A stretch of DNA of 61,707 nucleotides, filler included, from Candidatus Omnitrophota bacterium (GTDB lineage Bacteria; Omnitrophota; Gorgyraeia; Zapsychrales; JBDRMG01): the NCBI GenBank assembly GCA_043812495.1. It is 6 parts of 6 records of this genome, joined end to end, with 100 filler letters (N's around TTAATTAATTAA, not from the genome) between each part and the next. Parts side by side here need not be neighbours in the genome. Positions count along the whole stretch, not along the records: positions 1 to 10,085 come from JBDRMG010000042.1; 5 more parts are not named here. The stretch is one strand, 5' to 3'. A program made the position numbers and the translations under genes. The notes beneath the pieces were generated by a model. It searched no databases. It was not told the DNA's origin and was given only the letters and a program-made list of their open reading frames with translations. Below, piece after piece: positions 1-19,100 of this stretch (position 1 is the stretch's first letter; each line of letters opens with the position of its first letter).

Positions 1-2
1 GG

Positions 3-3000
3 ATATTCGGAATAGGAGAGGAAAATAAAGGCCGTGGGGTCTATGCCAACTATCCGAAAGTCAATGAAGTTAGAGATGGCAGATTGGTATATCCAGAAGA
101 ATACAAAGCGTTAAAAAGGATTGTTGTGTTTGCAGAAACACAAAGCGATGAGGAAACCGGCGATGTACGCAAAGACACGGAACTCTACGCTAACGTTGGC
201 TTATGGGTTTCTGTCGGAATGGTTATTATCGTTGCCTTGGTCATTCTTCTTGTGCTGGGGGTGAGGAAGTGGCTCAGCCGTCGTATCAACGCGCCGAATG
301 GAGTTTTAGAGGGCATCCGGGTATCAGGTGATCAGGGACTAGGGTACCCGGATATCGGGGTATTAGGGACAAAATATTTAATGGTTCGACGCGCTTCGCT
401 TGTGGTTCGACAAGCTCACCATCCCGAGCGTAGTCGAGGGACTCACCATGAATCTCTGTGGAGATTCATGTTCCGTCCCGGATATCCAGATTCCCCGGAT
501 AACCCAGTGCCGCCCCAACTAACATATCTAAACGTAGAGGGAGAAATAAATAGTACGCAAAATATAGTTGGGGCGGCGCTAGTCCCTAATACCCGGATAA
601 CCAGATCACTGATTCTACATATACTATTACTCACCCTTCTCGCCGCGGCCGTTGGTTTGGTCCTCGCTCACGCGAACATATCCATCCAAGAATTCTTGTT
701 TGGTTCCGGCGTGATTTGCGCCGGCATCGGTTTAGGACCAATTTCTCTTAAAGAAACACGTACACGCACTTCCCGGGTAGGAACCAAAGACGCTCAAGCC
801 TTCTTAAGGGCAAAGATTCTCCTTGCCCAAAGGAACAATCAAGCCGGATACTTTGAGAAGACCATCGCTCTTGTGACCACCCGCGGACTGCCGATCATCC
901 ATCTTCTTAGGGCAAGAAAAATGAGCGAGGAAGAACAAAAGTTATTCTACGAAAATGCCCTTTCCCTTTATGCTCAACTCATCGAAGCTCAGCTGTCTCT
1001 TGGCCGGTACCGGGAAGCGGCCAAGACCTCGAGAGAGGCTTGCCGCGTATTTCCAGAGAAGAATGCCAAAGGGTATGCCGCGATAGTTAAACTTCTGGTC
1101 ATTTGGGGAAATAGATTGCGGAAAAACAATGACCTTAAGGATGTCGAAAACCTCTTGGAAACAGCGGTGGAAATCGCGGGAGAAATACAGGTCAGCCTGA
1201 TCAGTATAAACTCCCTCGCGTATCTCTATAATCTAAACGGACGCTTTGAAGAAACCGTGAAGCTGGTCACCTCCCGCGGATTGCCGAACATCAACTTTCT
1301 CCGGGGACCGAGAATAGGCAGAGCGAAGATGGATAGGAGGCTGTTTGACAATAACGCCCTGTCCGTTTACATGGAATTTGTCAGGGCCCTGATGGGTCTT
1401 GGCTGGTACCAGGAAGCCGTCGCGTCTTTACAAGAAGCCCGCCGGGCATTCCCTAAGGATAATCCGCACTATAGTTATATTGCCGAGATGGTCATTAAGC
1501 AAACAAGGGATGAGAAAAATCTGGCGGATATCGAGTTGCTTTTGAAAACAACCCTGGGAATATCCGGGAAGCTTCCGATTCGCTTGACGTCTCTACGGCA
1601 TCTTATTCATTTCTATGTCGAACAAAACCGCCATCAAGAAGCTGCGCGCGACCTCCGTCAGGCCCTTGATCATGTCGCCCTGATGGATGAGACATTAGAA
1701 AGAGATTCAGAGGGATATGTATTTTACCTCAAGAATGTTATTGGATTATACGAGATAGCCGAGAAGGCGTATTTGCGTTTTAAGGAACACTATCGGGATA
1801 TCTACAATGATTATCGCCAATCCCCCATTGTTCAAGATATCGTATCCAGGCAGGCCCGCTTAAGAGCCCGTAACCATGCCCTGCCTAGTGGTGATTTTTC
1901 TGACATGAGAGCCGAGGCCTTGGCCCTGTTCGCGCGAGGCGCCTATAACACATCCGCCTATGACGAAGCTAGAGTGATTTTGATGGCCATCGACGAAAGG
2001 TTTCCTGACCGGCGGCTTAGCGGAGGCTGGACAGCCCAATGCTTCTTGGGAGAGATTGACCGATTAACAAAGTCTTCGCGCAATGGAATTACAGAAAGAC
2101 CGTCTAAAGAAAGCAAAAATGAATGGCCAAATTCCGTGAACGGCTTTATTTTTGCCGATATGCTTCTTTGGGGTGAGATATCGATCGGCATTGCCATGCT
2201 TGCGGCAACGATTCTAATCATTTTTTCGTGGCGTATAATGCAAGCGGTAAAACGTTTCATCAAGGAGATGGGTGGTTATTTTGCATTATTCACTGTTTTT
2301 CTGGTTGGCATTAGTCTGGTCAGCGCCTCATGGGCGATCATGATCTACAAAGATTGGACAAACATATTAGCCTGGTTTAATTCACAAACAGTCACTCGTT
2401 TCCTAAGCACCGCTGTTCTTGTTTTTGCTGCCATACTTGTTTGGAAAATAATTGACAGGAAAATTATGAAATGCTCTGAGTTAATATTTGCAGCAGAGAT
2501 TAGCCGGCTAGAAAAACCAATCGAGCCTCAAACCTATCATGAAGCCTTTTATGTTAAGTCGGCATTGAAAAAATTTCTCTCTTTTGGCTATTTAACCGCG
2601 CCCCATTTGGATAAGAGCGCATTAACGGATATCTTCTATGAAGAATTGCAGAAAACCTATGTATTAGAAAGATGCTGGCTTCTTAAGAGAGCTCCTCCGC
2701 TGGCATGTCTTGTTCCCGCGCGTGAAGGAGTGCCTTTGCGATTAACCATAAAGAATGTTTTCTTTATTCATGTCGAGGTTGACTATAGAGCGTATCTCAA
2801 CCATGGCTCAAAGACGCAGCTTGAGTATTTATCCAAAATACGATTGACGCATGGCCCGAGAGATTCCATTATTCTTGTTGTTTTCTTGATCCTCTTGATG
2901 TATGCATTTGGCAATGTATTGCTCATTCCACTTTACTATGAAGTTGCCCACGCACTTGGCCATGATGTGTCCATGTACTATCATGCGGAACTAAGATTAT

Positions 3001-6000
3001 TATTTGCGCTTTTTGCCGATTTATTCCTAACAGTTGCGCTCTGTGCTATGTCAGCAAGATATGCGCTAAAAGTAAGAAAGATTTTTGCTGACTATACAAT
3101 AAAATACCGACCAACAGCCGCAAGATTCTGTTTCCCATTTCCTGCCAGCGCAATGCCACTTTTCTGCCTAATAGTGATTAATATGTTTTCCTTGATTTTC
3201 GCTTATTTTGGGATAGTGAGTGTAAAACTTGCGCTAGCGTGGCCCTACATTGTTTTCTTTTTGTTCATGGTGTCTGTTCTAAGATTTTGTCAAAGAATCT
3301 GGCAGATGCGAAAACAGGAAAAATGCGAATCAATTTCGGATAATCTTCCCGGATTACGCCGTCCGCCTGTTACCAGAGTTAAGATGATAACAGTCCTCAG
3401 GGACATTCCCGGGGCGAAGAACTCACACAACTTACGCAAAGGAGACCGTTTTATCCATCGGCCAACATCACAGTTTGCCAGTGCGAGGCTTAACGTGTAT
3501 GGCTTATCGGCCCGAATCTTTGAAAAATTCCGAATACGCAAAATAAGCCGTTTCTTCATCGAGCGTATAAGAAACCATAAGCCTATGATTAACCGGTCAG
3601 CTCTCTATGTTGCTGAAGCCATCGCCGATGTTCCTGAAAAGACGCAGCGATCCTTGAAAAACAGATACCGGGCAAAACGCTATCTTACGTCCTTGCGCCG
3701 CTGGGTCCTTATTCCCATAACACTCGCGTTCGCTCTTATGCTGGCTTTCATCCCTGTGTGCATTCTGGATGCTGTCCGGCCCCATCCAAAGGCATTATCC
3801 GGTGAATTTGAAAAATCATTGGATAGGTGTCAGGGGTCATCATGCAAACGGTCCTATTATTATCGGCCGCATGTCAAAGTTTCTGAAGAGACCTCTGATA
3901 CTATTTTCACGGTTTCTAACCTGGATAATGAATTTTATTCAGGGTATATCGCGTCTGATTCCGATTCTAATCAATGGGTGAACCTTGAGAAATCTCCCCA
4001 AATGGGACGCGTGATCATACCCGATAGTGCCAGCACGCAGACACAAACCATCACCATTTTCAATCCTCCGGCATGGGATTACGCCCCATTTTATACTCCG
4101 CCGGGAATGGTGAGTCAGAGCCATTTTTATACACCAGGGGTTTCTCTTGATCCTTACTATTGGGCTTATCGTTTAAAGATCGACGGGGGTGTGGTTTCCG
4201 CAACATACACCCTGTCAGTGACTGACGATTACAAGCTCGTCTTCAACGAAGAAGAGCGCCAAGGGCTCCTTGAGCTTGACCAGGTGACACGGGACTATTT
4301 GGACCGGTATTTCGAAGGCGCCGTTGGCCTGCCGGACTACGGTGATTTTGAAACTGTCCGCTTATGGATAGAAGATTTTGCCCGCCGGAAATGGATGTAT
4401 TCTTCAGGTTCTCGCTGGATCTGGTATTGGGCGTGGAATGAATATCAGCCTGTGATGAAGGCCAGCCTCCCTGCACAACAGGATAAAACCATCGGCCTTC
4501 AGTGGGGAGGTTTGGCTTTTAACGGGTATAAATTATCGCGTTATTTCGGCGTGCCGGCGGTTGCCTATTTAGGTTTTCAAAACAGCAACGAAGATCTCGC
4601 GCTCACAAACGACGAAGACCACATGATTTTTGCCATGTATAACGATCAGACGCAGAAATTTGAGAATGTCGATTTAACAAAAAATGTTTCTCACGATGAT
4701 TCCCGTCTTTCATTCAACATCGAGACATTGATCAGAATTCTTGGCGGGGCCGTCATCGCGCTGATTCTTTTGCCTTTGATTTTTGCCACGAGAGTTCTGC
4801 AAAGAAGATGGGCCAATATCAGCGGTCTTCTTCGAAAAGCAAAAATCGGTGAAGTCGCCAAAGACAAGACTCCCGAGCCTCAGAGCGCGGCGGGCAATTC
4901 ATCTTGGCGCATGCTGACCTTCAGCCAATGGATCGCGGCCCTGGAGAAATTGAGAGAACTCTATGAAGACTACCGGGGCAAAACAAGAGGAGGGCTTCAT
5001 CAGGGATGGTGGGAGGCCTGGAAAGCATTCGAGACGCAAAGACAGGACGATGCCCTTTCTCTCAGTGTATCGCTGTATCGTCTGCTTGAGGATGGTAAAG
5101 TTCGCCTTGAACCGGTCGCAAAACAGGAAAAGACAGCAAGCTATGCTTCGGTTGATGTGCGCACAACCTTCTATCGGAATCCCATCAAGCTTATCATTAA
5201 AAGGAACGATGCTTACTTGGTTATCCCCGGGGTTAACGCAGTCCACGCGATTTCTCTCACGCAGCCGTTGGCCAAAAAATTGAATTCGGGAGTTTACGCG
5301 GTTGTTGCCGATCATTGGAAAAATGCCGGCAAAGACGATACTGACGCGCGGCATCAGTGGTTGGCTGATACTGGAATATCATCCAGAGAGCTCATTCCAA
5401 GCGCTTATGGATTGATCCTACCCGGCGTGACGGGTACCTTGGTCGAAGTGTTCGTCGTCGCGCTGCTCCTGGCCGGGCTTGGGGTTTTGGCGATAAGGTT
5501 TATCCTAAAAAGAAATCAGCAGAAACGCATCCGGGCAAAGAACGAGCAACTAACGATTGAAGCGGCGAATTTGAGCTACCTTGCCTACTCTGGCGTGCCT
5601 CTTGCGGAGCCTTTGCCCGAAAGATTATCCATTATTGCCGCCAATGAAAGTTATCGATTAAGAAGGAATGGCTGGACACCAGCGGAATCAGACGAAAGCC
5701 AGGAGCCCTCGCTTCCCGTGCGCCTCGCGGCCCAAGAGGAATTTGAGAGAGTTACCGAAGAACTTCATAAGGCTCGAGCCCAAGTGGCTGGCTGGTTTAT
5801 CTTCGGCATGCCGGTCTACGCGCTTGCCATCGGCGCCGTGATCCTCGCGATCCTGGGCGTTCTTCTTTGGCGCAAATCGGTCCTGGCCCAAGGGGAAAAG
5901 AATGCTGAAAACCGCATTTTCTGGTATGCGTGGCTTTATAAACACTATCCAATAACATTTATTATTTTAAATTGGCCTTTATTAACCATTATTGCATTTA

Positions 6001-9000
6001 CCATTTTCTGCATACTATTCAAGCGGCTTACGGGCTTTCTGAATTTCGAGACCTATATGATTTGCGGGGCACTTGGATTTTTATTTGGTGTTGTCATATT
6101 TTCAAAAGTGGTCGAGACAATATTCCCGCTTTATTTTCAGAAAAAAGACAAAATAATACCTCCGAAGATTATTGTTCTCGGAAGCCATACGCCCCTTGAT
6201 GCATATGTTTTTGTCTGCAAAATAATTGCGGTCTATAAAGGAATAAATGAAGGGGTAGCTCTCTCGGCGATTAGAATAAGACGGAACAATTCTGCAGAGG
6301 AAGTCACAATTGACATACCGTCTTTGTCAGATGAAATAATTTCCAAATCCACGGCCCGCGCTTTGGATTTGGCTTTGGAGAAACTTAAAGACACTTTGGA
6401 GAAAGAGTATTTCGCGAATCAAAACCTTGTGCTGAAATACGCGGAGTATTTGAGCCGGTGGGAGCTTCTGATAGGCCCTGACGATGACACGGCAAATGAC
6501 GACAGTGAACCAGTGTCCTCAAGGAATCAAAGCCTGACATCGGATACGGTTTCTTCTTTAAGAAGCTTCGGGCCGGTTGCGCTGGCGGCCAGCGTTGTTC
6601 TGGCTGTCCTCCTGGCCGGGCTGGGGATTTTGGCCCGCCGCTTCGCGTCGAGGCAGGCGTCAATCTTGCAAATGAGAAGAAATAATCAGGATTTGGGAAG
6701 AGGCGACTTAAGAGACTTGCCGCTTTTGTGGAGTGATTCGAGGACTTCCTTTGGCGATAGTTTACGCCACTTACTCGATAGTTCTTCGCGGATTTTGTGG
6801 AGTTCTTTCATAAATTTAGGTTCCCTATCTTTCATTTTAGACCTCCTGAGGAGAACAAATGTCAACTTGAGGGTAATTCAAGTGTTGATTAATTTCATTA
6901 ACCCGGACGCGGGTATGGTGCCGAACAATATGTTTAAAATTCCAGCTCACAAGAATTGGAATATTATGAACAGAGGCCGTGGCGATATGAATGGCATCGG
7001 GCAAATATCGGTCCGGAATAATTCCTTCCTTAACATATCGGTGAGCCAAATCCTGAGCTTCTTGAGTCGCCGGCAGTATTTCCATAGAGTATTCTTCAAT
7101 GATATCTATAAACGATTGTCGTTTTCTCCGATTCTTGGTTTGCTCTATTTCGGCAACGACCAATTCCGAAATACAAATTACGAAAGGAGCTTTACTGGCC
7201 AGCTCAAAGAAATCTCTCGTCGCTTGTTTAATCCGCAAAGCATCATCAGCAAACATTCCGCTAATAACAGACGTATCAATGTATATCCTCATGGTTTACC
7301 TCATTTCAATATTATATTAGGACACACGAGAAGTCAAGGGGAATGCGTGGCTATTGGCGGTTGGATTATTCCAGGTGTGCCCGCCTCGGCCCCACTAGGT
7401 TCATTTGGGCTCAGCGCTCACCTCACGGCGGAGCCGTGGGGGGCCGGGTTAGGCGTGCTGGTCGCGTTTGTCCTCGGCGCTGTGGTCCTTGCCGCGGTCC
7501 TGGGCGTTCTTCTTGTGCCGGGCGTGCGGAAATGGCTCGCCCGCCTCATCAACGCGCCGAATGGAGTTTTAGAGGGCATCCGGATATCAGGTGATCAGGG
7601 ACTAGGGTACCCGGATATTGGGGTATTAGGGACAAAATATTTAATGGTTCGACGCGCTTCGCTTGCTCACCATGAATCTCTGTGGAGATTCATGTTCCGT
7701 CCCGGATATCCAGATTCCCCGGGTAACCTAGTGCCGCCCCAACTAACATATCTAAACGTAGAGGGAGAGATAAATAGTACGCAAAATATAGTTGGGGCGG
7801 CGCTAGTCCCTAATACCCGAATAACCAGATCACCGATTCTACATATACTATTACTCACCCTTCTCGCCGCGGCCGCTGTTTTTGGCGCTCATGTTCTCTT
7901 TAATCTATCCGGATTGATAGTTGCTTTCGGCATGGTCGAAGAAGGAGACAGCCGCCTTTCGGAGGGCATCTTGGCTTCCGGCGCCAAGCCAAAAATCCTT
8001 CTCGCTAAAGACAACGATGTCAGCAGGAAAATCTTCGCAGAGTTTCTTGCATATAGGGGATTTCAGGTCATCAAAGCGTCCAACGGGAAGAAGGCATTAG
8101 ACGCATTCTTAGCTGATTCTGAAAAAACATTCCAGATTGTTGTAACCGATTACAACATGCCCTGCATGGATGGCGCTCAACTTGTGGCTGAGATCCGAAA
8201 AACGGATCCACTTATTCCGATCATTATGGTAAGCGGAAATATTGATATAGTGAAGAAGGAAATTACTCAAGTCGTGACCTTATTTCTGCGAAAGCCCTTC
8301 GACCCTGCAGATATCGTAGAGCATATTAGAGGGATTTTAAGCGTCAGGCAGGAAGGGAATCAGAAAAAAGAGGATAGTGACCCTCTCTATGGCTGGATTT
8401 TCTTATCCATGCCGACATTATCCATAATGCTTCCAGCTGCTGCGGTATTCCTTATTCTCAACAAGACCCTCCACCCGCGCAAAATAATGAATAACCTCAA
8501 TGATCTTGTTCAAGAACAATGGACAAGAAAATACTGGAGCTGGGGCAGTTTGGTTGTCTATTTACTTGCTTATACAATATTTGGCGCGTCTTACATGGCC
8601 ATAGCTACTTACTTTTTCGGTGGTCTATCTTTAGGCTTATTCGGCATTAATCTCAAATCCCTTGGAACGATCAAAACTATGGAAATTAGTATTATTATTT
8701 CTATAGTTGCAGCTATTTTGCATGCCTTGGGTCATATTAATATAGGTCCATACTTTTTAAATCAATATAGAGAAAGAAAAAGAACAAACATACAGAAATT
8801 AAAAGATAGAAGGCTAACCGTTCGTGTCGGTCCATATGCTAATCTCATCGCAGGTTTATTATACTTCCTTTATGTATTGATTCTTTCATCGCATTTCACA
8901 AAGAGTGCCCGCTATGAAACTTACTTTGGTATGTTCATTAATTTAGGTATGTTCCTTGGATTTGCAGTGCGTGCATCGAATGATGGAAGAGCCATATCAG

Positions 9001-10085
9001 CTTTGAATAGGCAAATTGAGGAGGAGGACAGCGATCGTTCTAATGAATCGTCCCTTGCCGGTTTTGGCCTCCTGTTGCCTTTGGGTGCGGCGGTTGTCCT
9101 CCTCGCCGGGCTGGGGGTTTTAGCTTATAAAATGTTCTCAAGGAAATCTTCGGGGGATGAGGCGCGGGTAAATTTTGATGCTGATTTGAGGAGTTCTTTA
9201 TCGCGGGAGACGAGGACGACATTGTCCATGGATGAGGCGATGGCGACGAGCAATGCATCAAATGGAGAAAAGGGGTATTCGTCCTGGAGGCTGTTTGCCT
9301 TTAAAAGATTAACCTCATCGGGCACGATGATCTTGAGCAATTTCATGATTTTGGCAATATCTTCTTTGATCTTGCTTTCGTCAAAATTCTTCTTACGCCT
9401 TAGCACAAAGCGGATTTCTAAAAGACTGACCAAAGCGGCAGATCCTTTTAGTTTGCCTTTCTCGATAAATTCAATGATTTTATGGGGTGATTCCCAGAGT
9501 GGCTTGCCGGATGCAGGATCTTCCTCTTTGGTAAGCCAATTGATGATGACATCGCTGTCAAGAAGGCAAGCGGTAAGAAGCGGATTATTTGACTTTGCCA
9601 TAGAGAGAGTTCCTCAAATTTCTGATAAACTCGGTCGAAGTGCTATCCTTGGGGACGATTCCTTTGTATTTTCCGAGAAGTTCATCGGCAATTTTGGTCT
9701 TTCCGTTGCCTCTTTTGTTGGGAATGATCTTAATCGATTGAATGGCTTCAATAGCTTCCTGCAAAGTTGTCATTTTGATAGCTCCTTTTGTAATGAGTCT
9801 AGACCATTTTCTGATGAAAGTCAAGCCGCTTTGTCTTTCCATGGCTTATTAGGACCGGGCATTATTATCTTTATCATCGCTGTATTTGGCCTTGGTGTTC
9901 TGGCTATTGGTTACTTAGCGGTGCAGAGAGAATGGCTTGTAAGACTCATCAACGCGCCGAATAGAGTTTTAGAGGGCATCCGGGTATCAGGTGATCAGGG
10001 ACTAGGGTACCCGGATATTGGGGTATTAGGGACAAAATATTTAATGGTTCGACGCGCTTCGCTTGCTCACCATGAATCTCTGTGG
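3..10085 (+). CDS. Giant modular multi-pass membrane polyprotein, partial at both ends (>3300 aa): TPR block, membrane/transglutaminase-like block, receiver domain, M50-like block, translated repeats and antisense-read TA cassettes
   Basis: The frame is open from base 3 (IFGIGEENKGRG...) through the TTG at 84 to the contig end. It contains recognisable domains: TPR-like helices ~800-2070, REC ~7990-8345 (IVVTDYNMP..DG, MVSG, RKPF) and M50-like ~8480-9030 (HALGH, GPYAN, NDG). Hydrophobic linkers recur throughout. Confidence 0.8.
285..651 (+). repeat. 328-bp intragenic repeat, copy 1 (carries a 39-bp insertion)
   Basis: Near-identical to 7548-7875 and 9948-10085; encodes INAPNGVLEGIR...LLTLLAAA; contains internal inverted repeats. 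Confidence 0.95.
403..441. repeat. 39-bp REP-like palindromic insertion (TGGTTCGACAAGCTCACCATCCCGAGCGTAGTCGAGGGA)
   Basis: Present in repeat copy 1 and absent from copies 2 and 3; exactly 13 codons; forms two imperfect hairpins. Confidence 0.8.
6686..6835 (-). CDS. Small (49 aa) putative antitoxin downstream of the PIN gene, nested antisense in the giant ORF
   Basis: Translated by hand: MKDREPKFMKELHKIREELSSKWRKLSPKEVLESLHKSGKSLKSPLPKS*. The ATG is 1 nt after the PIN stop, with a GGAGGT RBS in the PIN 3' end. Too short for the ORF track. Confidence 0.65.
   Translation of the reverse strand: MKDREPKFMKELHKIREELSSKWRKLSPKEVLESLHKSGKSLKSPLPKS
6837..7292 (-). CDS. PIN-domain (VapC-like) ribonuclease toxin, nested antisense
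   Basis: Motifs IYIDTSV, AEI, DAIHIA, LVSWNFKHIV and C-terminal ICSPQEV; GAGGT RBS at 7298-7302. Confidence 0.85.
   Translation of the reverse strand: MRIYIDTSVISGMFADDALRIKQATRDFFELASKAPFVICISELVVAEIEQTKNRRKRQSFIDIIEEYSMEILPATQEAQDLAHRYVKEGIIPDRYLPDAIHIATASVHNIPILVSWNFKHIVRHHTRVRVNEINQHLNYPQVDICSPQEV
7309..7337 (-). promoter_or_regulatory. Sigma70-type promoter of nested TA operon 1
   Basis: TTGACT (7337-7332), 17 nt, TAATAT (7314-7309); an overlapping TATAAT lies at 15-nt spacing. Confidence 0.6.
7548..7875 (+). repeat. 328-bp intragenic repeat, copy 2
   Basis: Direct repeat of 285-651 without the 39-bp insertion; few substitutions. Confidence 0.95.
9125..9601 (-). CDS. PIN-domain (VapC-like) toxin, nested antisense
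   Basis: Acidic motifs LLDSDV, LLE, FDALLVA and SRD; start overlaps the upstream small gene. Confidence 0.85.
   Translation of the reverse strand: MAKSNNPLLTACLLDSDVIINWLTKEEDPASGKPLWESPHKIIEFIEKGKLKGSAALVSLLEIRFVLRRKKNFDESKIKEDIAKIMKLLKIIVPDEVNLLKANSLQDEYPFSPFDALLVAIASSMDNVVLVSRDKELLKSASKFTRASSPEDFLENIL
9585..9773 (-). CDS. Putative antitoxin (62 aa, MTTLQEAIEAIQ...STEFIRNLRNSLYGKVK), nested antisense
   Basis: AGGAG RBS at 9782-9786; the 3' end overlaps the PIN start; the C-terminal 'S-x-E-F-I-R-x-L-R' resembles VapB-type toxin-binding tails. Confidence 0.7.
   Translation of the reverse strand: MTTLQEAIEAIQSIKIIPNKRGNGKTKIADELLGKYKGIVPKDSTSTEFIRNLRNSLYGKVK
9796..9824 (-). promoter_or_regulatory. 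Sigma70 promoter of nested TA operon 2
   Basis: TTGACT (9824-9819), 17 nt, TAGACT (9801-9796). Confidence 0.7.
9948..10085 (+). repeat. 328-bp intragenic repeat, copy 3 (cut by the contig end)
   Basis: Matches the first 138 bp of copy 2 with 2 substitutions; the contig ends inside it. Confidence 0.95.
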
Positions 10086-10185
10086 NNNNNNNNNNNNNNN
10101 NNNNNNNNNNNNNNNNNNNNNNNNNNNNNTTAATTAATTAANNNNNNNNNNNNNNNNNNNNNNNNNNNNNNNNNNNNNNNNNNNN
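10086..10185. other. Artificial contig linker (also at 30268-30367, 34771-34870, 47515-47614, 59288-59387)
   Basis: N44-TTAATTAATTAA-N44, which places stops in all six frames. Confidence 0.99.
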
Positions 10186-10326
10186 TGTGTTTCTTCTTTT
10201 TAGTGTTAGAATGCTTTAGCTCCATATGACCTCCTGTTTTTTGTTTGTTTCCACTTACAAATTAACAGTTTTTTTGGTCTTTGGAGCTTTTTTCTTATTT
10301 TGTCTCACTTAATGTTACAATCTTTC
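10186..10326 (-). mobile_element. Probable left end of a multicopy insertion sequence (IS30-like) with the first 13 codons of its gene
   Basis: 141 bp identical to 47615-47755. On the minus strand: end GAAAGATTGTAACATTAAGTGAGACA, AGGAGG RBS, and ATG at 10225 giving MELKHSNTKKKKH, reminiscent of IS30 transposase N-termini. Confidence 0.5.
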
Positions 10327-10387: not shown

Positions 10388-11383
10388 ATGCCACGTCAAG
10401 CTCGATTGGATTATCCGGGCGCTCTCCACCATGTGATTGCCCGCGGAATAGACGGTATCGAGATTTTTCAAACAGAAAAAGAAAAGCAAGCCTTCCTCTC
10501 TCGCCTTAAAAAACGCCTGTCTGAAAGCAATCTTCAAATTTATTCCTGGTGCCTCATGGACAATCATTGTCATTTGTTGATCCAAACCGGAAAAACATCG
10601 CTTTCAGAATTTATGCAGTCAGTCTTAACGGGTTATGCCGTTTTTTATAATAAAGCTCATAAGCGCAAAGGATATGTATTTCAGAATCGATATAAATCCA
10701 TTCTTTGCCAAACGGACGAATATCTCTTGCCGCTCATTCGCTATATTCACTTGAATCCTGTTAAGGCCAAGGTTGTGACTTTTGACAATCTTGCTCAGTA
10801 TCTCTGGACGGGGCATAAGGAGTTGATCCAAAATTCAAAAGAAGGAATTATTAATTCTCTTGAGGTCTTAAGGTTTTTTGGCACAAAACAGAATGAAGCG
10901 AGAAAGGCCTACCTCGAATATTTGAGAAATGGTCTGAGCAGCCAAGAAGATTTTATGGGGGGAGGGCTCATCAGGAGCCTGGGAGGGATAGAAGCAGCGC
11001 AGCGAATAACTAAAGAGGAAAGACAAAATTATGATGAAAGGATTTTGGGAGAAGGGAGCTTTGTGAACGAAGTTTTGAGCCGGTTGGAAATAGTAACGGA
11101 AGAAAAAAGAAAGATATTTAAAGATATCGATGAATTATTAGAACGGTTAGAGCGTTATTATCATGTTAAGAAAGAAGACATTTTGAGAGGTCAAAACAAA
11201 AAAGTGCGGGAAGCAAGAAATGTTTTGGTATATTTGAGCAATGCCTGTTTAGGAGAAAGCTTAACAGCGATAGGGAAAATACTCAAAATTAAACAGTCCT
11301 CAGCCAGTAGGGCTAAGCGGAAAGGCCAAGAGGTTGCGGCTCAAAAGGCCATTCTTGATCAATTGTTAGAAGATAGAAGATAG
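10388..11383 (+). CDS. REP-associated tyrosine (Y1/HUH, IS200-like) transposase with C-terminal DnaA-like HTH
   Basis: N-terminus MPRQARLDYPGALHHVIARG; HUH motif in MDNHCHLL; FQNRYKS; YIHLNPV catalytic Tyr region; helical C-terminal HTH. Confidence 0.9.
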   Translation: MPRQARLDYPGALHHVIARGIDGIEIFQTEKEKQAFLSRLKKRLSESNLQIYSWCLMDNHCHLLIQTGKTSLSEFMQSVLTGYAVFYNKAHKRKGYVFQNRYKSILCQTDEYLLPLIRYIHLNPVKAKVVTFDNLAQYLWTGHKELIQNSKEGIINSLEVLRFFGTKQNEARKAYLEYLRNGLSSQEDFMGGGLIRSLGGIEAAQRITKEERQNYDERILGEGSFVNEVLSRLEIVTEEKRKIFKDIDELLERLERYYHVKKEDILRGQNKKVREARNVLVYLSNACLGESLTAIGKILKIKQSSASRAKRKGQEVAAQKAILDQLLEDRR

Positions 11384-13117: not shown

Positions 13118-16100
13118 ATGTTTAACAGACTGGACAAATACAACAATCTGGATTCTGATGACTCTGACCGTTTTGATGAATATGACGGTTCTAAGGGTTC
13201 TGATGACTCCGGTTTTGACGGTTCTGATGACTCCGGATTTGATGGCTCTGATTTTGAGCCGGAAAAACAGCCGCAAGAGCAGGAGCCTTTTAAGAGCCGC
13301 TTCAAATCCTGGATCAGAACCGCTGCCTTGATTGTTGTCCTGGTTTTTGTCCCCGAACAAATCAGCTGGGCTATTAATTATAATCCTTATGTGCTGCATA
13401 AGCGCCAGGCGGCTCACTATGTCGATCCGGATGCCTCAAAAGAAGACCTGACGTCCGCGCGCATTGCCGGCAATGTCGAATATTTCCTGCGCCAAATTTC
13501 CTATCAACAAAACCCCGAACTTCGCTTAAGACTGACCAATAATAATCTCTCCGGAGCCGAATCCGATTCAACTGCGCCCTCCATTTTGATCACCTCACAG
13601 CGGTTCTACACGGACCGGGAAATCGACACAATTTACAACTGGCTGCGCGAACCGAGCATCTACCCCTTAAACTGCAGTATCTACGCCCTCAAAGACATTC
13701 TCACAAGCCATGAGATTGACACAACCCTGGAAGAACTTTCCGTGGTCTCATTGCTTGCGGATTTGATGAATGACATCATCCGCCCCGGTGAGCCGAAACT
13801 CAAGACTTCATTGTTTGCCATCAACGAAGTGGCCAAGGCTTATGGCCTCGATTATAAAGCCCTGAAAGTCCTTCCGTATGAGCTTTGGACCATAAAGACG
13901 CCTTTTATGGCCAACTTGAAAAGCGAGCACTTTGTCATGGTCACAGGCATGGATGAAGAGAATGTCTATTACACCGATATCGGCCAGGCCAAATTTATGC
14001 CCAGAGACGTGTTTAGCAATGAATTCAGCGGTTTTGTTTTGGCTCCGCCTTCCGACAATCTTCAGGAGGCCCGGCTGGTTTCAGAGTCCATGATGGCCTT
14101 TGTCTGGGGCTCGCAGTACCGCCACCGTGAAGGTAATCTGCCCGGTCTGTATACGAATTCGGACATGCTTGCTTTTGGAGCTATGACAGCACTTTCCTTT
14201 GCCATGTCAGTAGATATGAACCAATATTTCGTTCAATCGGGCGCGAACGAACTTTTTGGTGCATTCGCCGAATGGAAAGTGGCCACTGGAAAATGGGATG
14301 TGGATGATGCCGCCTTGTTTACAACGGTCGGAAGCAGCGCGGTTGGAATGGGCTACAAAGGATTCAGCAAACCACAAACAGAAATACCATATGCTCCTTA
14401 CTCCACAGGCCAGAAAATCGGCCATATGTTTGAAGGCATGGGCATCGGCGGCTTGGACGGTTTTTCGAAATATTACTTAAACAAATTAATTATTGATCCG
14501 GTTACAGATAAGATTACGGAAAGACTTGATATCCATTCGGACATTGTTAATCAGGGAATCAAGATGTTGTTAACCCGGGCGATTTCCGCTCCCCTGAGAA
14601 TAGCTTCGCTTAAAATGATTGATTTTGCGGGTGATAAGCTGCTGCCGGGATTTGATAAAGGGTGGTATCAGGATTGGTGGGCTTCAGCCGAAATAAAAGA
14701 CGGCCAGCAGGTAAAATTTTCAGACATGGGCTTGTTTGACAGCATGTGGAGCGAATTCAGCTCTCCCGACAACTTGACCTCCATGCTTTATACGGCAGGG
14801 AGCACGACGGTCCAGTATTCTTACAAACAATTGATTGATCCCGATTATGACCCCTCAAAAGATCTTTTGGCGGGCGCCCTGATGGATTGGACCATCATGG
14901 AACTGTCGGAGATGGGTTTAAAATACCTGGCGCCGGATTATTATCGGCAGATGAAAGAAGAAGAGAACAAAATTAGAGAAGATGCAAAAAAGCTGGGCAA
15001 AGAAATAGGCGCGACCGGCTGGAAACTCCTGGCCCAGAAAGGCCTTAAGGTCATGGAATTAAGCATCATCGCCCTGGCCTATCAAAGCCTCATGAGAAAA
15101 TATGTTAAGACAAGCAAAAACGACGACAAACCCTTTACGCCCATGGAATTTCACGCCCTCGCGTTTTTTACCACGTCTTTGGCCTCGGGAACCATCGGCG
15201 CTCTTTTGGGCAGGGAAGATGACACGAGCGGCGGTGACGTAGAAGATCCAAGCTTTTTCAAGAAAGTATGGTCCAATTTCTCTGTTGAATTATCCAACAT
15301 GTCCAACAGTTATTTTTCGTATGCCGGGTCCGCGCCCGCGGCCGGGCAAGGCTGGAAACTTCAGGATTGGGACCGATTCATCGATAAGTCCGTTGAGTTT
15401 ACGGGCTTTACGCCGGAGTTCGCCAAACAGATGAACTCCACGTATGACATGATGAAGCGGCAGAACGCCATTTCCTCAGACCCCAAGTCGGACGAAGAAC
15501 TGGACAGGCAATTTAGACAGTTGGTCATGGATTCCCTCAGCGCAAGCAGACTCAACGCGGCCACCTACATGTTCCAGGAACTGGCCAAGGCAAGTGTCCA
15601 CAATTTTTATGACGGCTTGAGCTTCGTCGGAACCCGCATTGCCGGCAATCATTTCAGCCCCCACTGGATGGGTCTGGATAGTCGCTTTTGGAATAAAGGA
15701 AAAATTAATTCAACGGGCACGGCCGAAAAAGAGGCAACAAAAGTAGTCATGTACACCCTGGGCGTCCAGCCGGTCGGCTCATTGATCCAGATTCACTATA
15801 ACGTCTCGGGCTCATGGAATCCCAGAAAAATCGCCGCGCCGATCGGCATGATTTTTGACCCCCATGAAGAGACTTCCGGCCGGGAAACTTCCGGCGGCGG
15901 GCCCGGCTTGCGGCTATTATTAAGCACAGGCGTCGAAAAGAAGATTTTATTCAGAAACGAGGAAGCAGGCGATTCTCTCCAAAACGGATTTCAAGAAAAA
16001 TTTCAGCTGAGCACCGATTCCTCGTTTGCCTCAAGCCAGGAGTCATCGCTCGCTTCCAAGAAACGTCTATTCATCAAATACTTCAGCGAAAGAGAGAACA

Positions 16101-19100
16101 ATATCCGAGGCTGGGCCAAGTATGATTTAAGCCTCAACCCGCCCAAAGGATTGGATGAAAGATTCGCGGCCAAGGGAATATCAGAAGGCGGAACGATCGT
16201 GTCCTATATCTATGATCTTAACGATCCCCGAAGCGCCCAGGACAAATCGCATGAGCTCAGCAATCTCATTTTGCTTGGGCCGCAGGAAAGAGGAAAACCC
16301 TCCTTCTTTATTTTTTCCCAAGAGACGGACGCCGGCCTGGAAAAAATAGGCGACCTTTCGGTCGTCATGAACCATGAATTCAAAGACGGCAACACACTCG
16401 CCTTGAATTATCAGAAAGTACGAATGGTCGACGGAAGTTCGGTCATTCTCTATAACCGTTCGGCCGGCCAAAAAGGCAAAGACGCGAGCGCCTATGTGAA
16501 CCTGATGGTTTCCCCGGCCGACTTTGCGGCCAAGGCCATGGCGGGCCAGGGATTTTCCATTCATCTGTTTAATCTGGACGGCAATATCATCATGGCCAAA
16601 GCGGGAAAGACCGGCGGAGAAAATGACGAGTCAGGCACAACCATCAAAATGCCGGCTAACGAAATCGACCTTACATTTCCCAACGCAAACGGGAATAATA
16701 TCAGCCTGGCTTTACTCTCGAAAATGTTAACGGACAATAAGAATCAAGAGTTCCTTGCCCTTGCAAAGGAAAAGGAATTCTATGGCCGTCTTAAAGAAAA
16801 CCCCGAGTTGTTGCTGGCTTCCCTTGATACGTCAATTTCTCGTGAGGTGTGGGAGAGTATATGGAGCTCCGAAGAATCTAAGAAAAAGCAGCCGGACAAT
16901 TACTACGCCACTCGAGGCTCCAAGTATGGCGAAATCCTGATCGAGAATGAAAACGGAGACATAGAAAAGCTCGACCTCATGGACGTGCTATTCAGCTTCT
17001 CCGAAGGGAAAAATCCACAAGGTCTTTTGGTGGGCTCTTTGGGTCTGGATTTTCTGGGCGTGGCCAAAAACGGCGCGAACGTTTCTGTTTACGCGAGCGG
17101 GGACTATCTTAGGGAAAATTTTGGGGAGAACTATCGTCAAGGCGCCGAAAACGCTTTGCAGGGGCCGACCGCTCAAGCGGATCCGGATAGCCTCAATATT
17201 AGAGTGGATGATCCCAAGGGTGACGTCGGCGGTTTTGAGCAGGATCAAGAGAACGATAAATTCGCCTGGCGTTTGAGAAAGGCCGGTGACCAGGTCTATT
17301 TTCACGGCCCTCGGCTGAGTCCTCTCGAGGACCCCATGGGCGTGCGCAACGAAAACATCGCCCGGCCCTACTGGAAAGCGGGATTGGTGTATAAAAATGA
17401 AATGCCGCATGGCGCCGAAATGACTTTACCCGTAGGTCTGGATCAATACGGCAGTTTATCTATCGCTCAGATTACCAAAGTGACGGGTAAAGACGGAACA
17501 AATTCTTACAAGGTTTACAATCCTGAAACAAAACAAGAAGAAACAGTCCAGACCACCGACGAATATCTCCTCCAGCTCGGCCGCACCGCCATGAATATCG
17601 GCGGAAGCCAGGTGGTGGATCATTTTATTTCCTACGGCCGCTCCTCAGAGCGCGAAGAAAATCTCGAATTTAAAGGCAAGCATTTATCTTTAGGTTTTGG
17701 AAAAGGCTTTGTCAAAGTCGCGGACAAAAGCCTCAGCGAAGATCAAACCCAAATCGTTGAGAAGCTGTCGATGCCTCAGATGAAAGGCGCAACCTATGGG
17801 AATAATTTCATCGACGGCCGCCATATGGACAGCAAAGAAATCACCGATGGCTTTAAACTTAAGAAAAATATCGTCTCCAACGAAAGCCTGAAGCGCGCGG
17901 TCACAGGCCTCAATAGAGAGTACTCGGACATCTTAGAAAATCTTCTCATGCAGGCCTCTGATATCGACGAGAACGCGGGTATCGATGACCTTCGCCAGAA
18001 AGCCGGGGCCATCGATGAAGCGACCGCGAGCGCGGATGAGTTGAAATTTAAAAAAGCCGTTGGCCAGCTGTCCGGGGCCTGGGAGAATAAAGATTTTCAA
18101 AAAATCGAAAAGTTTTCAACGCGTTTTGATTCTGACAAAGATCAGAATGACAGGGAAGACAAAGACGCGTTCCATTTCAGCCAAGAAGACCAGGATAAAA
18201 TAGATCAGTCCATCAGCGATTATAAGTCCAAGAAAGCCGCCGGCCAATTATGGGGCGCGACGGATATCAATGTCATCACAAAAGCCATGTGGAATCTCGG
18301 CACGGAAGACAGAGAAAAAGTTCAAAAAGCCCTGGCCGACGAAAGATACCGCAGCGTTCCCTTGGTGATTGAAGGCGACTGGGTGGACCGCTCTCATGAA
18401 GACCAGACAGATTTCAGCTTTGTCACGATCAAGGCCACAACGTATAACAAAGACGGAATTCCCAAAGAAGTTGTCCTGAGGGATCCCCGTAAATATGCCA
18501 AGAGTCTGGATTTCGTCATTCCTGAATCGGGGCTTTACGTCACGGGTTCCGACGGGGAGCTTAAGGATTTTGCCGGTTCGCCGGACGGCGAATATACCAC
18601 CTACTCAGGCCGCATGGAGTTCACCATCGACGGCAATTCCCCGTCCAATCTCAAAAGCCATCAGTTCACGCCCGGCGCCTATTGGAAGTTGCCCGCGGTC
18701 GCCGGCAACGCCAAAGACGGAGATTTCAACCGCTACATGACCCGCGACTGGAAGTGGTCATCGGGTAAAGGCGCCCAAGGCGCTATCTATGTGGATTTAG
18801 CGGGCCGCGCCATCGGCGAATTCGGGGTCGGCAAGGATACCGTGTCCAGGCTGCCCTTTATCAGCCAAAATGTTTCGTCCCGAACGCAAAGAACACCCAC
18901 ATACCTCCTCGTTCTGCTCATAGGAGCGGATCCTCAAATATTGGAGGAGCAGAATGTCGCAAGTCTCCTTAATGCCGAAGGAGGTCAAGAGGTATTGAAT
19001 AAATTGGGTGAGTACTTAAGGAAAATCGGTGTCAGCAAAGTTGATGTTGAATTGGCCAAACAGAGCTTAAAAGCAGGCGAATACGATAAATTTTATTCAG

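Follow-up and report, generated by a model that had tools for sequence, protein, structure and literature searches.

Complete toxin–antitoxin operons nested antisense in the stop-free frame of a giant Omnitrophota gene

A giant plus-strand frame in a Candidatus Omnitrophota genome (G000) reads through complete, independently promoted toxin–antitoxin (TA) operons that are encoded on the opposite strand and are open only in the register of the giant gene. This register has been selected for the absence of stops, and the nested arrangement recurs in other genomes, where the homology is limited to the cassette itself. These cassettes probably form a guild adapted to in-frame antisense life inside giant genes, in which addiction would stabilise giant-gene segments.

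Results

The window analysed is a stretch of 61,707 nt made of joined contigs, and its positions 1–10085 represent the entire contig C42. As the original prediction had it, a single plus-strand frame stays open for more than 10 kb: it crosses C42 without a stop and is open at both ends, while the apparent stop at 10131 is not biological because it lies within the artificial N44-TTAATTAATTAA-N44 linker (Table 1). The 3′-end of C42 and the 5′-end of contig C53 share a 27-nt overlap across which the frame continues, and all 33.7 kb of C53 is open, which gives a continuous frame of at least 43.8 kb. Genome-wide, 14 frames of 4.3 kb or more are free of stops (on 12 contigs; 275,886 nt summed, about 14% of 1.9 Mb), and 12 of these frames run off a contig end. 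The expected series of unrelated domain payloads was borne out only in part, by a receiver domain and by weak TPR matches. The neighbouring giant ORF (window position 13118 onwards) begins with a Peptidase_C39 domain, which is also reported at the start of full-length Omnitrophota giant genes (10.1101/2023.11.21.568195). The C42 frame belongs to a gene of this class, which encodes a giant modular membrane protein.

Table 1. Features of contig C42 and of the adjoining artificial junction (positions in the window)
Feature	Position	Strand	Remarks
Giant ORF fragment, 3361 codons	3..10085	+	Stop-free; spans all of contig C42
Structured repeat copy 1, nested hairpins, in frame	220..658	+	39-nt (13-codon) insertion at about 403–441
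GLGVL-type membrane-helix linker, left of TA operon 1	6576..6632	+	Repeat family D3
Partner of PINa, putative antitoxin, 49 aa	6689..6835	−	Downstream of toxin; register f1; conserved
PINa, PIN-domain toxin gene, 151 aa	6837..7292	−	Pfam PIN 1.6e-10; register f0
Promoter-like site TTGACT-17-TAATAT, upstream of PINa	7309..7337	−	Sequence match
GLGVL-type membrane-helix linker, right of TA operon 1	7446..7517	+	Sequence
Structured repeat copy 2	7483..7882	+	5′ part encodes membrane helix; inner 75-nt hairpin at about 7728–7802
Response_reg receiver domain, giant-frame aa 2665–2776	7995..8330	+	Pfam 5.9e-18
GLGVL-type membrane-helix linker, left of TA operon 2	9069..9125	+	Repeat family D3
PINb, PIN-domain toxin gene, 158 aa	9125..9601	−	Pfam PIN 3e-8; register f1
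ATb, upstream partner of PINb, putative antitoxin, 62 aa from conserved ATG	9585..9773	−	Register f0
Operon 2 promoter TTGACT-17-TAGACT, then AAGGAG RBS	9796..9824	−	Conserved in 5 genomes
GLGVL-type membrane-helix linker, right of TA operon 2	9861..9917	+	Sequence
Structured repeat copy 3, cut by contig end	9883..10085	+	Remainder opens contig C53
Artificial contig joiner N44-TTAATTAATTAA-N44	10086..10185	.	Source of apparent ORF stop at 10131

The four predicted minus-strand genes were recovered, two of them with Pfam PIN matches and two as their small partners, and they do lie in two registers: PINa and ATb are codon-aligned with the giant frame (f0), while the PINa partner and PINb face it wobble position to wobble position (f1). 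PIN domains are RNases. PINa retains all invariant residues of its family, whose downstream partner gene was found at 46 of 48 loci. The predicted complex of PINa with its partner scored 0.93 (best of three controls, 0.00) against a mark that 116 of 157 solved complexes attain but only 2 of 215 mismatched pairs, a pass that may partly reflect likeness to already solved PIN–antitoxin complexes; contacts agreed to at least 92% between runs, the pLDDT of the partner was at least 80 and the partner covered catalytic-pocket residues 7–8, 48 and 97–99 in the model. Two antisense promoters had also been proposed. Both sites are present, and that of operon 2 is kept in five genomes with its −35 box, 17-nt spacing, −10 box, RBS and ATG, but the number of promoter-like sites across the region (6 observed, 6.2 expected) does not exceed chance. 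The nested operons would be type II TA systems, each with its own sigma-70-type promoter and RBS and consisting of a putative PIN RNase toxin and a small partner that may neutralise it.

The absence of stops is specific to the register read by the giant gene. The three antisense registers contain 0, 10 and 11 stops in PINa and 11, 0 and 15 in PINb, the zero falling in the giant-frame register in both (f1 for PINb). In a crude set of 1366 free-standing genes from the genome, the antisense frames carry 10.2, 14.4 and 21.2 stops per kb, and none of the 220 such genes of 450–599 nt has any open antisense frame; openness across all four nested genes is far beyond chance against this background. Synonymous resampling gave stop-free probabilities of 0.036, 0.58, 0.35 and 0.17 for the four genes of the window, and as low as 0.001 for an IS630 DDE gene nested elsewhere. 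Judged from these sequences, the nested TA genes appear constrained on both strands, as conserved proteins and as one stop-free antisense register. Free-standing homologues are not equally open. All 14 PINa homologues found in 40 relatives are free-standing and carry 3–7 stops each in the corresponding register, and all 80 metagenome loci are likewise free-standing, with a mean of 5.3 stops there (6 of the 80 are stop-free). Since no embedded PINa relative occurs among these 14 and 80 loci and six free homologues are stop-free, the capture of PINa may have been a lucky filter event rather than an adaptation. The part of the prediction that only stop-free captures are kept is supported by the insertions, which are in frame and open in the giant register only.

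Three copies of a structured repeat, also predicted, are read within the giant frame. Their folding is strongly structured (z of −4.3 and −5.2, with none of 100 shuffles as good), and the inner 75-nt hairpin of copy 2 is missing in the C53 copy. The full element (about 330–400 nt) was found in this genome only, while a 34-nt piece of it is 94–100% identical in many related genomes.

Within the giant frames of the genome, 299 ORFs of 80 aa or more lie in an alternative frame, and the 150 that reach 100 aa were searched against Pfam. Eight matched above the cut-off, and all eight are antisense and derive from selfish elements: four PIN genes, DUF433 and DUF5615, and the HTH and DDE_3 domains of IS630. 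All four PIN/PIN_3 loci of the genome are nested in giant frames (about 4e-4 under random placement).

PINb homologues with 54–66% identity were found in four other genomes, G001 (of the same family), G003, G018 and G005. All are antisense and in the same register, within frames open over 12–20 kb, that of G005 being truncated to a match to residues 1–100; three distant homologues (27–30% identity) are free-standing and contain stops. The module content of the surrounding giant genes varies between relatives, as predicted, and to the extreme that it is completely different, with the TA cassette shared: homology to the giant frames of G000 is confined to the cassette, and in operon 2 the DNA homology between genomes runs from the −35 box to the toxin stop, the flanks being unrelated. 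The cassette is flanked by 58 nt at 100% identity in G001, about 300 nt at 69% in G003 and 200 nt at 84% in G018. In these three of the four genomes the flank pairs are local direct repeats without a common linker, and the 58-nt repeat occurs at those two places only in the whole G001 genome. Of the original model of a polyprotein gene that grows by in-frame capture between stereotyped linkers, the in-frame, stop-free capture of TA operons by the giant gene is supported; an integron-like device with the linkers as recombination sites is not, as no conserved site travels with the cassette.

A second lineage, the PIN_3 type (on contig C65 in G000), behaves similarly: 14 of 30 loci are embedded (in 13 further genomes), and register f1 is the one used throughout, the open frame having been checked over 2–3.4 kb, short of giant length, at 13 of them. 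In the PIN_3 tree the embedded copies lie on one side of a weakly supported branch (65/79), which requires one change, compared with 10.2 on average after shuffling and with none of 500 shuffles as low, and that side mixes taxonomic families; convergent constraints on amino acids from the shared antisense frame may have inflated this grouping. The closest pair, from two different families, has 516 nt in common around the PIN gene, beyond which the checkable 1.5 kb on one side is unrelated and the other side ends at a contig end.

Discussion

In the explanation that we favour, an insertion into a giant gene would persist only when its length comes to a whole number of codons and it brings no stop into the giant frame, and a gene with stop codons of its own could satisfy this in the antisense orientation only. 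The cassettes would then be translated through as part of the giant protein. A resident addiction module would penalise DNA loss and might in this way protect a long, repeat-rich and deletion-prone segment, much as TA cassettes guard large chromosomal integrons. At least the PINb and PIN_3 lineages have probably specialised in this niche, moving between non-homologous giant-gene positions and different families, always antisense and with the wobble positions of both frames facing.

The observed anatomy is also accounted for if the giant gene is simply the largest target in a compact genome for in-frame, stop-free insertions, which would be harmless there because the peptide between membrane helices need carry no meaning; TA operons, an IS element and hairpin repeats would then accumulate as passengers without benefit to the host or the gene. 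We hold this to be a serious possibility, somewhat short of an even chance. Giant frames do occupy 14% of the genome, every nested gene that was identified belongs to a selfish element, the repeat copies differ by 39-nt and 75-nt indels that are both whole codons, and the giant-frame peptides spanning the cassettes resemble antisense junk. Target size alone poorly explains why four of four PIN loci fall into that 14%, especially as the stop-free filter should lower their share, or why the PINb and PIN_3 arrangement is kept across several families with a fixed register and intact promoters. These points prove no benefit, and passive tolerance departs from the adapted guild only at the last, inferred step. 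An assembly artefact, by chimeric joining at repeats or by mistaking a long frame for a gene, is very unlikely. The bin is fragmented into 66 contigs and C42 ends within the structured repeat, but no misjoin can rid a single antisense register, and only that one, of every stop in four genes, 4 + 13 genomes assembled independently show the nesting too, and 10–75 kb without a stop at 44% GC is impossible without selection.

Control of the giant gene by the cassettes, through transcriptional interference from the antisense promoters or mRNA cleavage by the PIN RNases, appears improbable. The promoters are conserved, near consensus and opposed to giant-gene transcription, a transcript so interfered with would need a very long time to make, and RNase activity is that expected of the PIN family; against this, the sequences show no connection between the toxins and the giant mRNA, and the non-homologous positions of the cassettes fit a tuned regulatory site poorly. 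We give about as little credence to a translated counterpart of integrons, in which dedicated recombination captures DNA between linkers serving as sites and keeps the stop-free captures. It would suit the GLGVL-type linkers that flank both operons of G000 (three of them share a 33-nt DNA stretch with 82–88% identity), the similar motif-plus-helix pairs on either side of the cassettes nested in C53 and C19, and the self-promoted TA cassettes known in large chromosomal integrons (PMC13108822). The dissimilar local direct repeats around the PINb cassette in G001, G003 and G018, the confinement of the 58-nt repeat to two places and the end of homology at the −35 box on one side and the toxin stop on the other speak against such sites; neither an integrase nor an attC-like element came up in searches made without models dedicated to them, and inter-module membrane helices are general in these giant proteins (10.1101/2023.11.21.568195; 10.64898/2026.06.07.730766).

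Four known systems can be set beside the repeats and cassettes. Rickettsia palindromic elements are in-frame insertions of palindromic repeats within protein-coding genes. The hairpin-forming repeat described here is likewise read within an ORF and varies in length by whole codons (39 and 75 nt), but it is larger (about 330–400 nt) and a nested composite of hairpins. In E. coli O157:H7, embedded antisense genes with their own promoter and RBS lie wholly inside a longer frame, a similar layout (PMC9927249, PMC5960689); those are single short ORFs seemingly born within an older gene, whereas old, widespread two-gene Pfam operons were inserted here, with the mother frame adapted or the insertions filtered, and the arrangement is mobile and conserved across families. 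The superintegron of Vibrio cholerae also scatters self-promoted TA operons through a long array of unrelated modules, and they have been proposed to penalise loss of the array (Sci Adv 2024, PMC13108822); sedentary integron cassettes are, however, genes in their own right that attC sites delimit and an integrase moves, while the array here is one frame that the TA operons overlap in antisense, with no attC-like site or integrase tied to them.

The fourth system is that of the Omnitrophota giant genes of the 'Archaeovorin' type (West-Roberts et al. 2023, 10.1101/2023.11.21.568195; Nielsen & Lui 2026, 10.64898/2026.06.07.730766). These are single frames of tens to hundreds of kb, with many membrane helices that separate domains unrelated to each other and mostly of cytoplasmic type (TPR, signalling), a C39 peptidase near the N-terminus (here on the neighbouring contig) and assembly breaks at internal repeats, and the earlier view that no named system matches the giant gene had to be given up. 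TA genes appear in the two papers only as flanking genes or as cargo of hypervariable loci, and the words antisense, nested and opposite strand occur in neither; here, complete TA operons and IS630 lie inside the frame on the other strand. Our literature search found no published description of TA operons nested antisense in giant genes.

Extent and composition of the giant reading frames

Whole contigs from a genome bin of 1.94 Mb and 66 contigs are strung together in the window, and the joiners between them (N44-TTAATTAATTAA-N44) are artificial. Contig C42, which makes up positions 1–10085, is complete, and its plus-strand frame (3..10085) contains 3361 codons and no stop. The open frame described in the original prediction was thus correct and even understated, since it extends along all of C42 and, with no stop over the whole contig, is open at either end. 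What looks like a stop at 10131 belongs to the joiner and not to the genome, and an alternative genetic code is unneeded, as table 11 gives no stop. C42 and contig C53 share 27 identical nt, which end the former and begin the latter, and the frames are continuous over this overlap, so the two contigs carry at least 43.8 kb of continuous frame, open at both ends. A six-frame scan of the genome revealed contigs open from end to end (C65, 75.3 kb; C53, 33.7 kb; C11, 22.6 kb; C19, 13.3 kb) and open frames of 14–34 kb, each running off a contig end, on C20, C63, and C45. The giant open frames, belonging to one gene or several, add up to 275,886 nt on 12 contigs, that is, 14% of the genome. Both C20 and C63 carry two giant frames on the same strand, overlapping by approximately 100–170 nt in different frames, which a frameshift, programmed shifting, or a pair of adjacent genes could explain.

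A second giant ORF of the window (13118–30267, plus strand) lies on C45, a contig separate from C42. It comprises more than 5700 codons and runs off the contig end. Given its real start and the Peptidase_C39 domain (3.5e-10) at aa 186–309, it probably represents the N-terminus of a giant gene. Just upstream, its start is adjoined by a free-standing gene (10388–11383, plus strand) encoding an IS200-like Y1 transposase domain (2.4e-10) and a DnaA-type helix-turn-helix; the product is possibly a REP-associated tyrosine transposase, an identity that would fit the many hairpin repeats of the genome.

In the protein predicted from C42, a Kyte–Doolittle scan detected 32 hydropathy peaks, corresponding to about 25 distinct helices in 3361 aa, so it is predicted to have the numerous transmembrane helices typical of the Archaeovorin type. 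The segment encoded by 660–6600 (1980 aa) had no homologue in 40 relatives at 1e-5, and the sole match, elsewhere in the source genome, was that of a linker. The linkers are reminiscent of PEP-CTERM-type anchors. When the giant protein was scanned with NCBIfam for sorting-signal families, the 25 matches listed, out of 76, were all to response-regulator families. SecA_DEAD was matched twice in the genome, in a normal 997-aa SecA frame on C10 and where contig C55 (2 kb) begins, neither of which was identified as carrying a giant frame.

Features of the giant reading frames and the genes nested in them (window coordinates unless a locus is named)
Feature	Position	Strand	Remarks
PINa	6837–7292	−	TA operon 1; Pfam PIN 1.6e-10
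PINa partner	6689–6835	−	small overlapping gene downstream of PINa, shared motif
Promoter-like site, operon 1	7337–7309	−	sequence match
PINb	9125–9601	−	TA operon 2; Pfam PIN 3e-8
ATb	9585–9773	−	62-codon partner upstream of PINb
Promoter, operon 2	9824–9796	−	TTGACT-17-TAGACT; conserved in five-genome DNA alignment
Structured repeat, copy 1	220–658		core nearly identical to other copies
Structured repeat, copy 2	7483–7882		core nearly identical to other copies
Structured repeat, copy 3	9883–10085		core nearly identical to other copies; element continues on C53
IS630-type transposase	L007 (source genome, C20): 8421–9632	antisense in 33.7 kb giant frame	HTH 8479–8967, DDE_3 8984–9484
DUF433–DUF5615 pair	L014 (source genome, C19): 7660–8372	antisense in 13.3 kb all-open contig	1.4e-21, 5.3e-25

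The structured repeat

The three copies of a structured repeat noticed in the original prediction are real. The repeat folds far better than shuffled sequences on either strand (z −4.3 and −5.2), and its copies differ by hairpin-bearing indels of 39 and 75 nt, both of which are whole codons. Neither Rfam matches (gathering threshold over the whole window, E ≤ 1 on 100–800) nor tRNAs (scan of 1–10085) were found, thus the repeat is not a known RNA family or a tRNA. The full element was found in this genome only, while a 34-nt piece of it (7640–7673), containing the motif CTTCG, recurs once or several times, with 94–100% identity, in each of about 15 related genomes from other families and is far more conserved than its surroundings. 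In our reading, the repeat is a composite in which mobile hairpin repeats are nested, and it may be tolerated since it contributes codons but no stops. The palindromic elements that lie in frame in Rickettsia genes can be likened to it.

Four groundwater sequencing runs contained 5–8% of the sampled words. For the region 5400–9900 they yielded 10 small contigs of 151–244 nt, most of them identical to the window, and none of these bridged the cassette junctions. One DNA contig skips 7727–7803; it corresponds to the shorter repeat copy on C53 and does not represent a deletion. The RNA library gave two pieces and was uninformative on expression.

The nested genes form two putative toxin–antitoxin operons

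The four minus-strand genes proposed within the C42 frame are borne out by the PIN matches and the conservation of their partner genes. In a 25-row family alignment 23 columns are invariant, D6, E48, and D99 among them, and PINa retains every one. A small overlapping downstream partner with a shared motif accompanies it in 46 of 48 homologous metagenome loci. No Pfam or NCBIfam family was matched by this partner or by ATb. Structure prediction scored the PINa–partner complex at 0.93, while the best of three controls reached 0.00; this mark is attained by 116 of 157 solved complexes and 2 of 215 mismatched pairs, with the reservation that solved PIN–antitoxin complexes may help the predictor. 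The runs shared at least 92% of contacts, the pLDDT of the partner was at least 80, and the modelled partner covers the catalytic residues 7–8, 48, and 97–99 of PINa, which supports that it binds the toxin over its active site. With a PIN (VapC-like) toxin, a conserved acidic pocket, and a syntenic partner, the nested operons can be regarded as putative type II TA systems.

Two nested promoters had also been predicted. That of operon 2 was conserved in the five-genome DNA alignment, where the −35 box, the spacing, the −10 box, the AAGGAG RBS, and the ATG were all kept; the site in front of operon 1 is promoter-like in sequence, and the number of such sites was no higher than in shuffles.

The PINb cassette recurs in giant frames with unrelated flanks

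Close homologues of PINb (54–66% identity) were found in four related genomes, one of the same family (G001) and three (G003, G018, and G005) representing three other families of the same order. All four are antisense in the same register, and the frames around them are open over the whole 12–20 kb analysed. Three further homologues with 27–30% identity are free-standing and have stops. The similarity to the giant frame of the source genome is limited to the cassette (aa 3014/3045 to ~3265) and the flanks gave no match; at the DNA level, homology extends from the −35 box to the stop codon of the toxin. The cassette is bracketed by local direct repeats in three of the four other genomes, and these are different in each: 200 nt at 84% in G018, ~300 nt at 69% in G003, and a perfect 58-nt pair in G001 (locus L132 on contig C23, at ~10266–10323 and 11066–11123 in locus coordinates). 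No direct repeats were found around the cassette in G005. In the source genome, both TA operons lie between copies of a GLGVL-type membrane-helix linker.

The 58-nt repeat of G001 is a hairpin itself with a 16-bp stem. It is not a dispersed repeat, being present in that genome only at the two flanking places. The insert and one repeat together make up 798 nt, that is, 266 codons, and recombination between the copies would excise exactly this number of codons. On contig C8 of G003 (locus L133), a PINb-type and a PIN_3-type gene are nested in one giant frame approximately 4 kb apart, mirroring the two operons of the window.

The original prediction invoked integron-like capture at stereotyped linkers. 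This was not supported, since the flanks of the same cassette are unrelated between genomes and nothing resembling a recombination site moves with it; no attC-like site was seen travelling with the PINb cassette in the five-genome DNA alignment, although a cryptic site is possible.

For PINa, no homologue embedded in a giant frame was found: the 14 detected in 40 related genomes stand free, as do the 80 metagenome loci examined. Antisense to the 80 metagenome homologues, open frames reach at most 1089 nt.

Other nested genes and the PIN_3 lineage

Within the giant frames of the source genome, 299 ORFs in alternative frames reach 80 aa or more; 240 of these are antisense. When 150 ORFs of at least 100 aa were scanned, eight had Pfam matches above the cut-off, all of them antisense and all genes of selfish elements: four PIN genes, a DUF433–DUF5615 pair, and two halves of an IS630-type transposase. 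One more match was weak and fell below its cut-off. All four PIN/PIN_3 loci of the genome are nested in giant frames. Two diverged copies of a segment made up of a motif plus membrane helix flank the DUF433–DUF5615 pair. The IS630 halves are one frameshift apart and the DDE motif region is intact; the giant frame is stop-free across the element, where the third frame of the same strand is also open for 404 codons. When close copies of this transposase were sought among genome contigs, only four distant relatives with at most 56% identity were found.

Homologues of the PIN_3 gene nested in C65 are present in 47 of 151 genomes of the order. Among the best 30 loci, 14 (13 other genomes) are antisense-embedded in one common register, with the frame open over the whole inspected locus (2–3.4 kb), and the remaining 16 are free and have stops. 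In a maximum-likelihood tree the embedded copies occupy one side of a branch, requiring one change compared with a shuffled mean of 10.2 (0 of 500 shuffles were as low); the separating branch has weak support (65/79), and an antisense constraint common to the embedded proteins might raise their resemblance above the level due to ancestry. Taxonomic families are mixed within the embedded side, for example, in a two-family sister pair at 100/100. The members of this pair have 516 nt in common around the PIN gene, and a flank of 1.5 kb on one side proved unrelated, the other side of the locus being cut by its contig end.

Stop avoidance in the antisense registers

As a background, in 1366 crude gene calls from non-giant contigs the three antisense registers contained 10.2, 14.4, and 21.2 stops per kb, and none of the 220 genes of 450–599 nt had any open antisense frame. 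Opposite PINa, no stop occurs in the codon-aligned register, which is that of the giant frame, and 10 and 11 occur in the other two; opposite PINb, the stop-free register is the one where third codon positions face each other, and the other two contain 11 and 15 stops. The partner genes have 2–6 stops in the registers other than that of the giant frame, and both lie in registers complementary to their PIN genes. The claim that the nested genes occupy two different registers was thereby confirmed. These two registers, the Pfam matches, and the conserved synteny rule out that the antisense ORFs are mere codon-aligned shadows of the giant gene, as had been anticipated.

It would have counted against the original prediction if free-standing homologues were equally stop-free in antisense. 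For PINa they proved not to be: those in the metagenomes have a mean of 5.3 stops in the critical register, although 6 of 80 are stop-free, and the 14 in related genomes have 3–7 each. When the protein sequence was kept fixed and codons were redrawn from genome usage, the probability of finding no stop was 0.036 for PINa, 0.58 for its partner, 0.35 for PINb, 0.17 for ATb, 0.006 for the nested DUF5615 gene, and 0.004 and 0.001 for the nested IS630 genes. The high value of PINb, compared with the approximately 7 stops predicted by the background, indicates that its amino-acid sequence itself avoids antisense stops, a sign of long residence. As all homologues examined are free-standing, PINa is an isolated capture in this genome, and its insertion may have been a lucky stop-free event. 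Considering that the TA proteins are conserved and that the giant register is stop-free in comparison with the other registers and the free homologues, the sequence data argue for selection on the frames of both strands in the nested TA loci.

Discussion

These results support that the giant gene is real and that its frame is under selection to stay open, which would require ribosomes to traverse it. They argue, from sequence comparison, for selection on uninterrupted translation of the giant frames, a point on which published proteomics is only partial. In this reading, the giant gene has received in-frame insertions of foreign DNA. A nested gene brings its own stop codon, hence it can be carried only in antisense orientation, which explains why none of the eight nested genes lies in sense. 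Two or more cassette lineages seem to have adapted to the giant-gene niche and to move between giant genes.

Most likely, the cassettes persist as addiction modules and incidentally stabilise deletion-prone segments of the gene. Purely passive passengers with no stabilising role would fit the anatomy equally well. Extending the addiction reading, giant genes might be translated landing strips for an in-frame antisense selfish guild whose addiction function locks segments in, a proposal that we consider rather doubtful in this full form. The guild would consist of PIN TA operons, IS elements, and hairpin repeats, the cassettes would spread horizontally from giant gene to giant gene, and addiction would secure segments that are otherwise unstable, costly, and repeat-rich. 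If so, the growth and persistence of giant genes would be due in part to nested cassettes, and co-evolution of entire conserved operons with an overlapping frame would here be seen for the first time. The finding of nested cassettes provides a testable idea of how the largest known genes grow and avoid decay, namely, by in-frame capture of foreign DNA combined with addiction modules that punish deletions.

Gene callers that accept the giant ORF drop the nested ORFs, consequently annotations hide real genes, which in this genome means every PIN toxin.

The giant frames match, in their sequence features, the giant genes described in Candidatus Omnitrophota, which combine numerous membrane helices with enzyme and signalling domains unrelated to one another and are fragmented at repeats (10.1101/2023.11.21.568195; 10.64898/2026.06.07.730766). 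An N-terminal C39 peptidase is also described for them (10.1101/2023.11.21.568195) and is seen here in the giant ORF on C45. The Archaeovorin type is defined by one ORF tens of thousands of codons long, compared with the at least 43.8 kb assembled here, by a C39 or S8 peptidase near the N-terminus, and by a divergent SecA_DEAD domain inside the giant protein. Nested or antisense genes are not mentioned in the text of either study, although their supplements may include nested calls, and a literature search for antisense genes in Omnitrophota returned only unrelated papers. The present analysis adds the nested TA operons, their fixed-register conservation between genomes, the homology limited to the cassette, and the confinement of the PIN genes of this genome to giant frames.

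Long antisense overlaps in bacteria remain a matter of dispute. In the present case, old two-gene operons recognisable by Pfam overlap with a second frame that has demonstrably been kept free of stops, and the overlap is conserved across families in the wobble-facing register. The embedded antisense genes of E. coli, as far as the published accounts cited here describe them, are single short ORFs and not conserved operons (PMC9927249, PMC5960689). In large chromosomal integrons, self-promoted TA cassettes are described as stabilising segments of the array (PMC13108822). An integron has an integrase with attI and a Pc promoter beside its array. Its cassettes are bounded by attC, whereas for the PINb cassette the limits of homology are the −35 box and the stop codon of the toxin. 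Should the landing-strip proposal hold, the giant genes would represent a protein-coding analogue of the TA-stabilised chromosomal integron.
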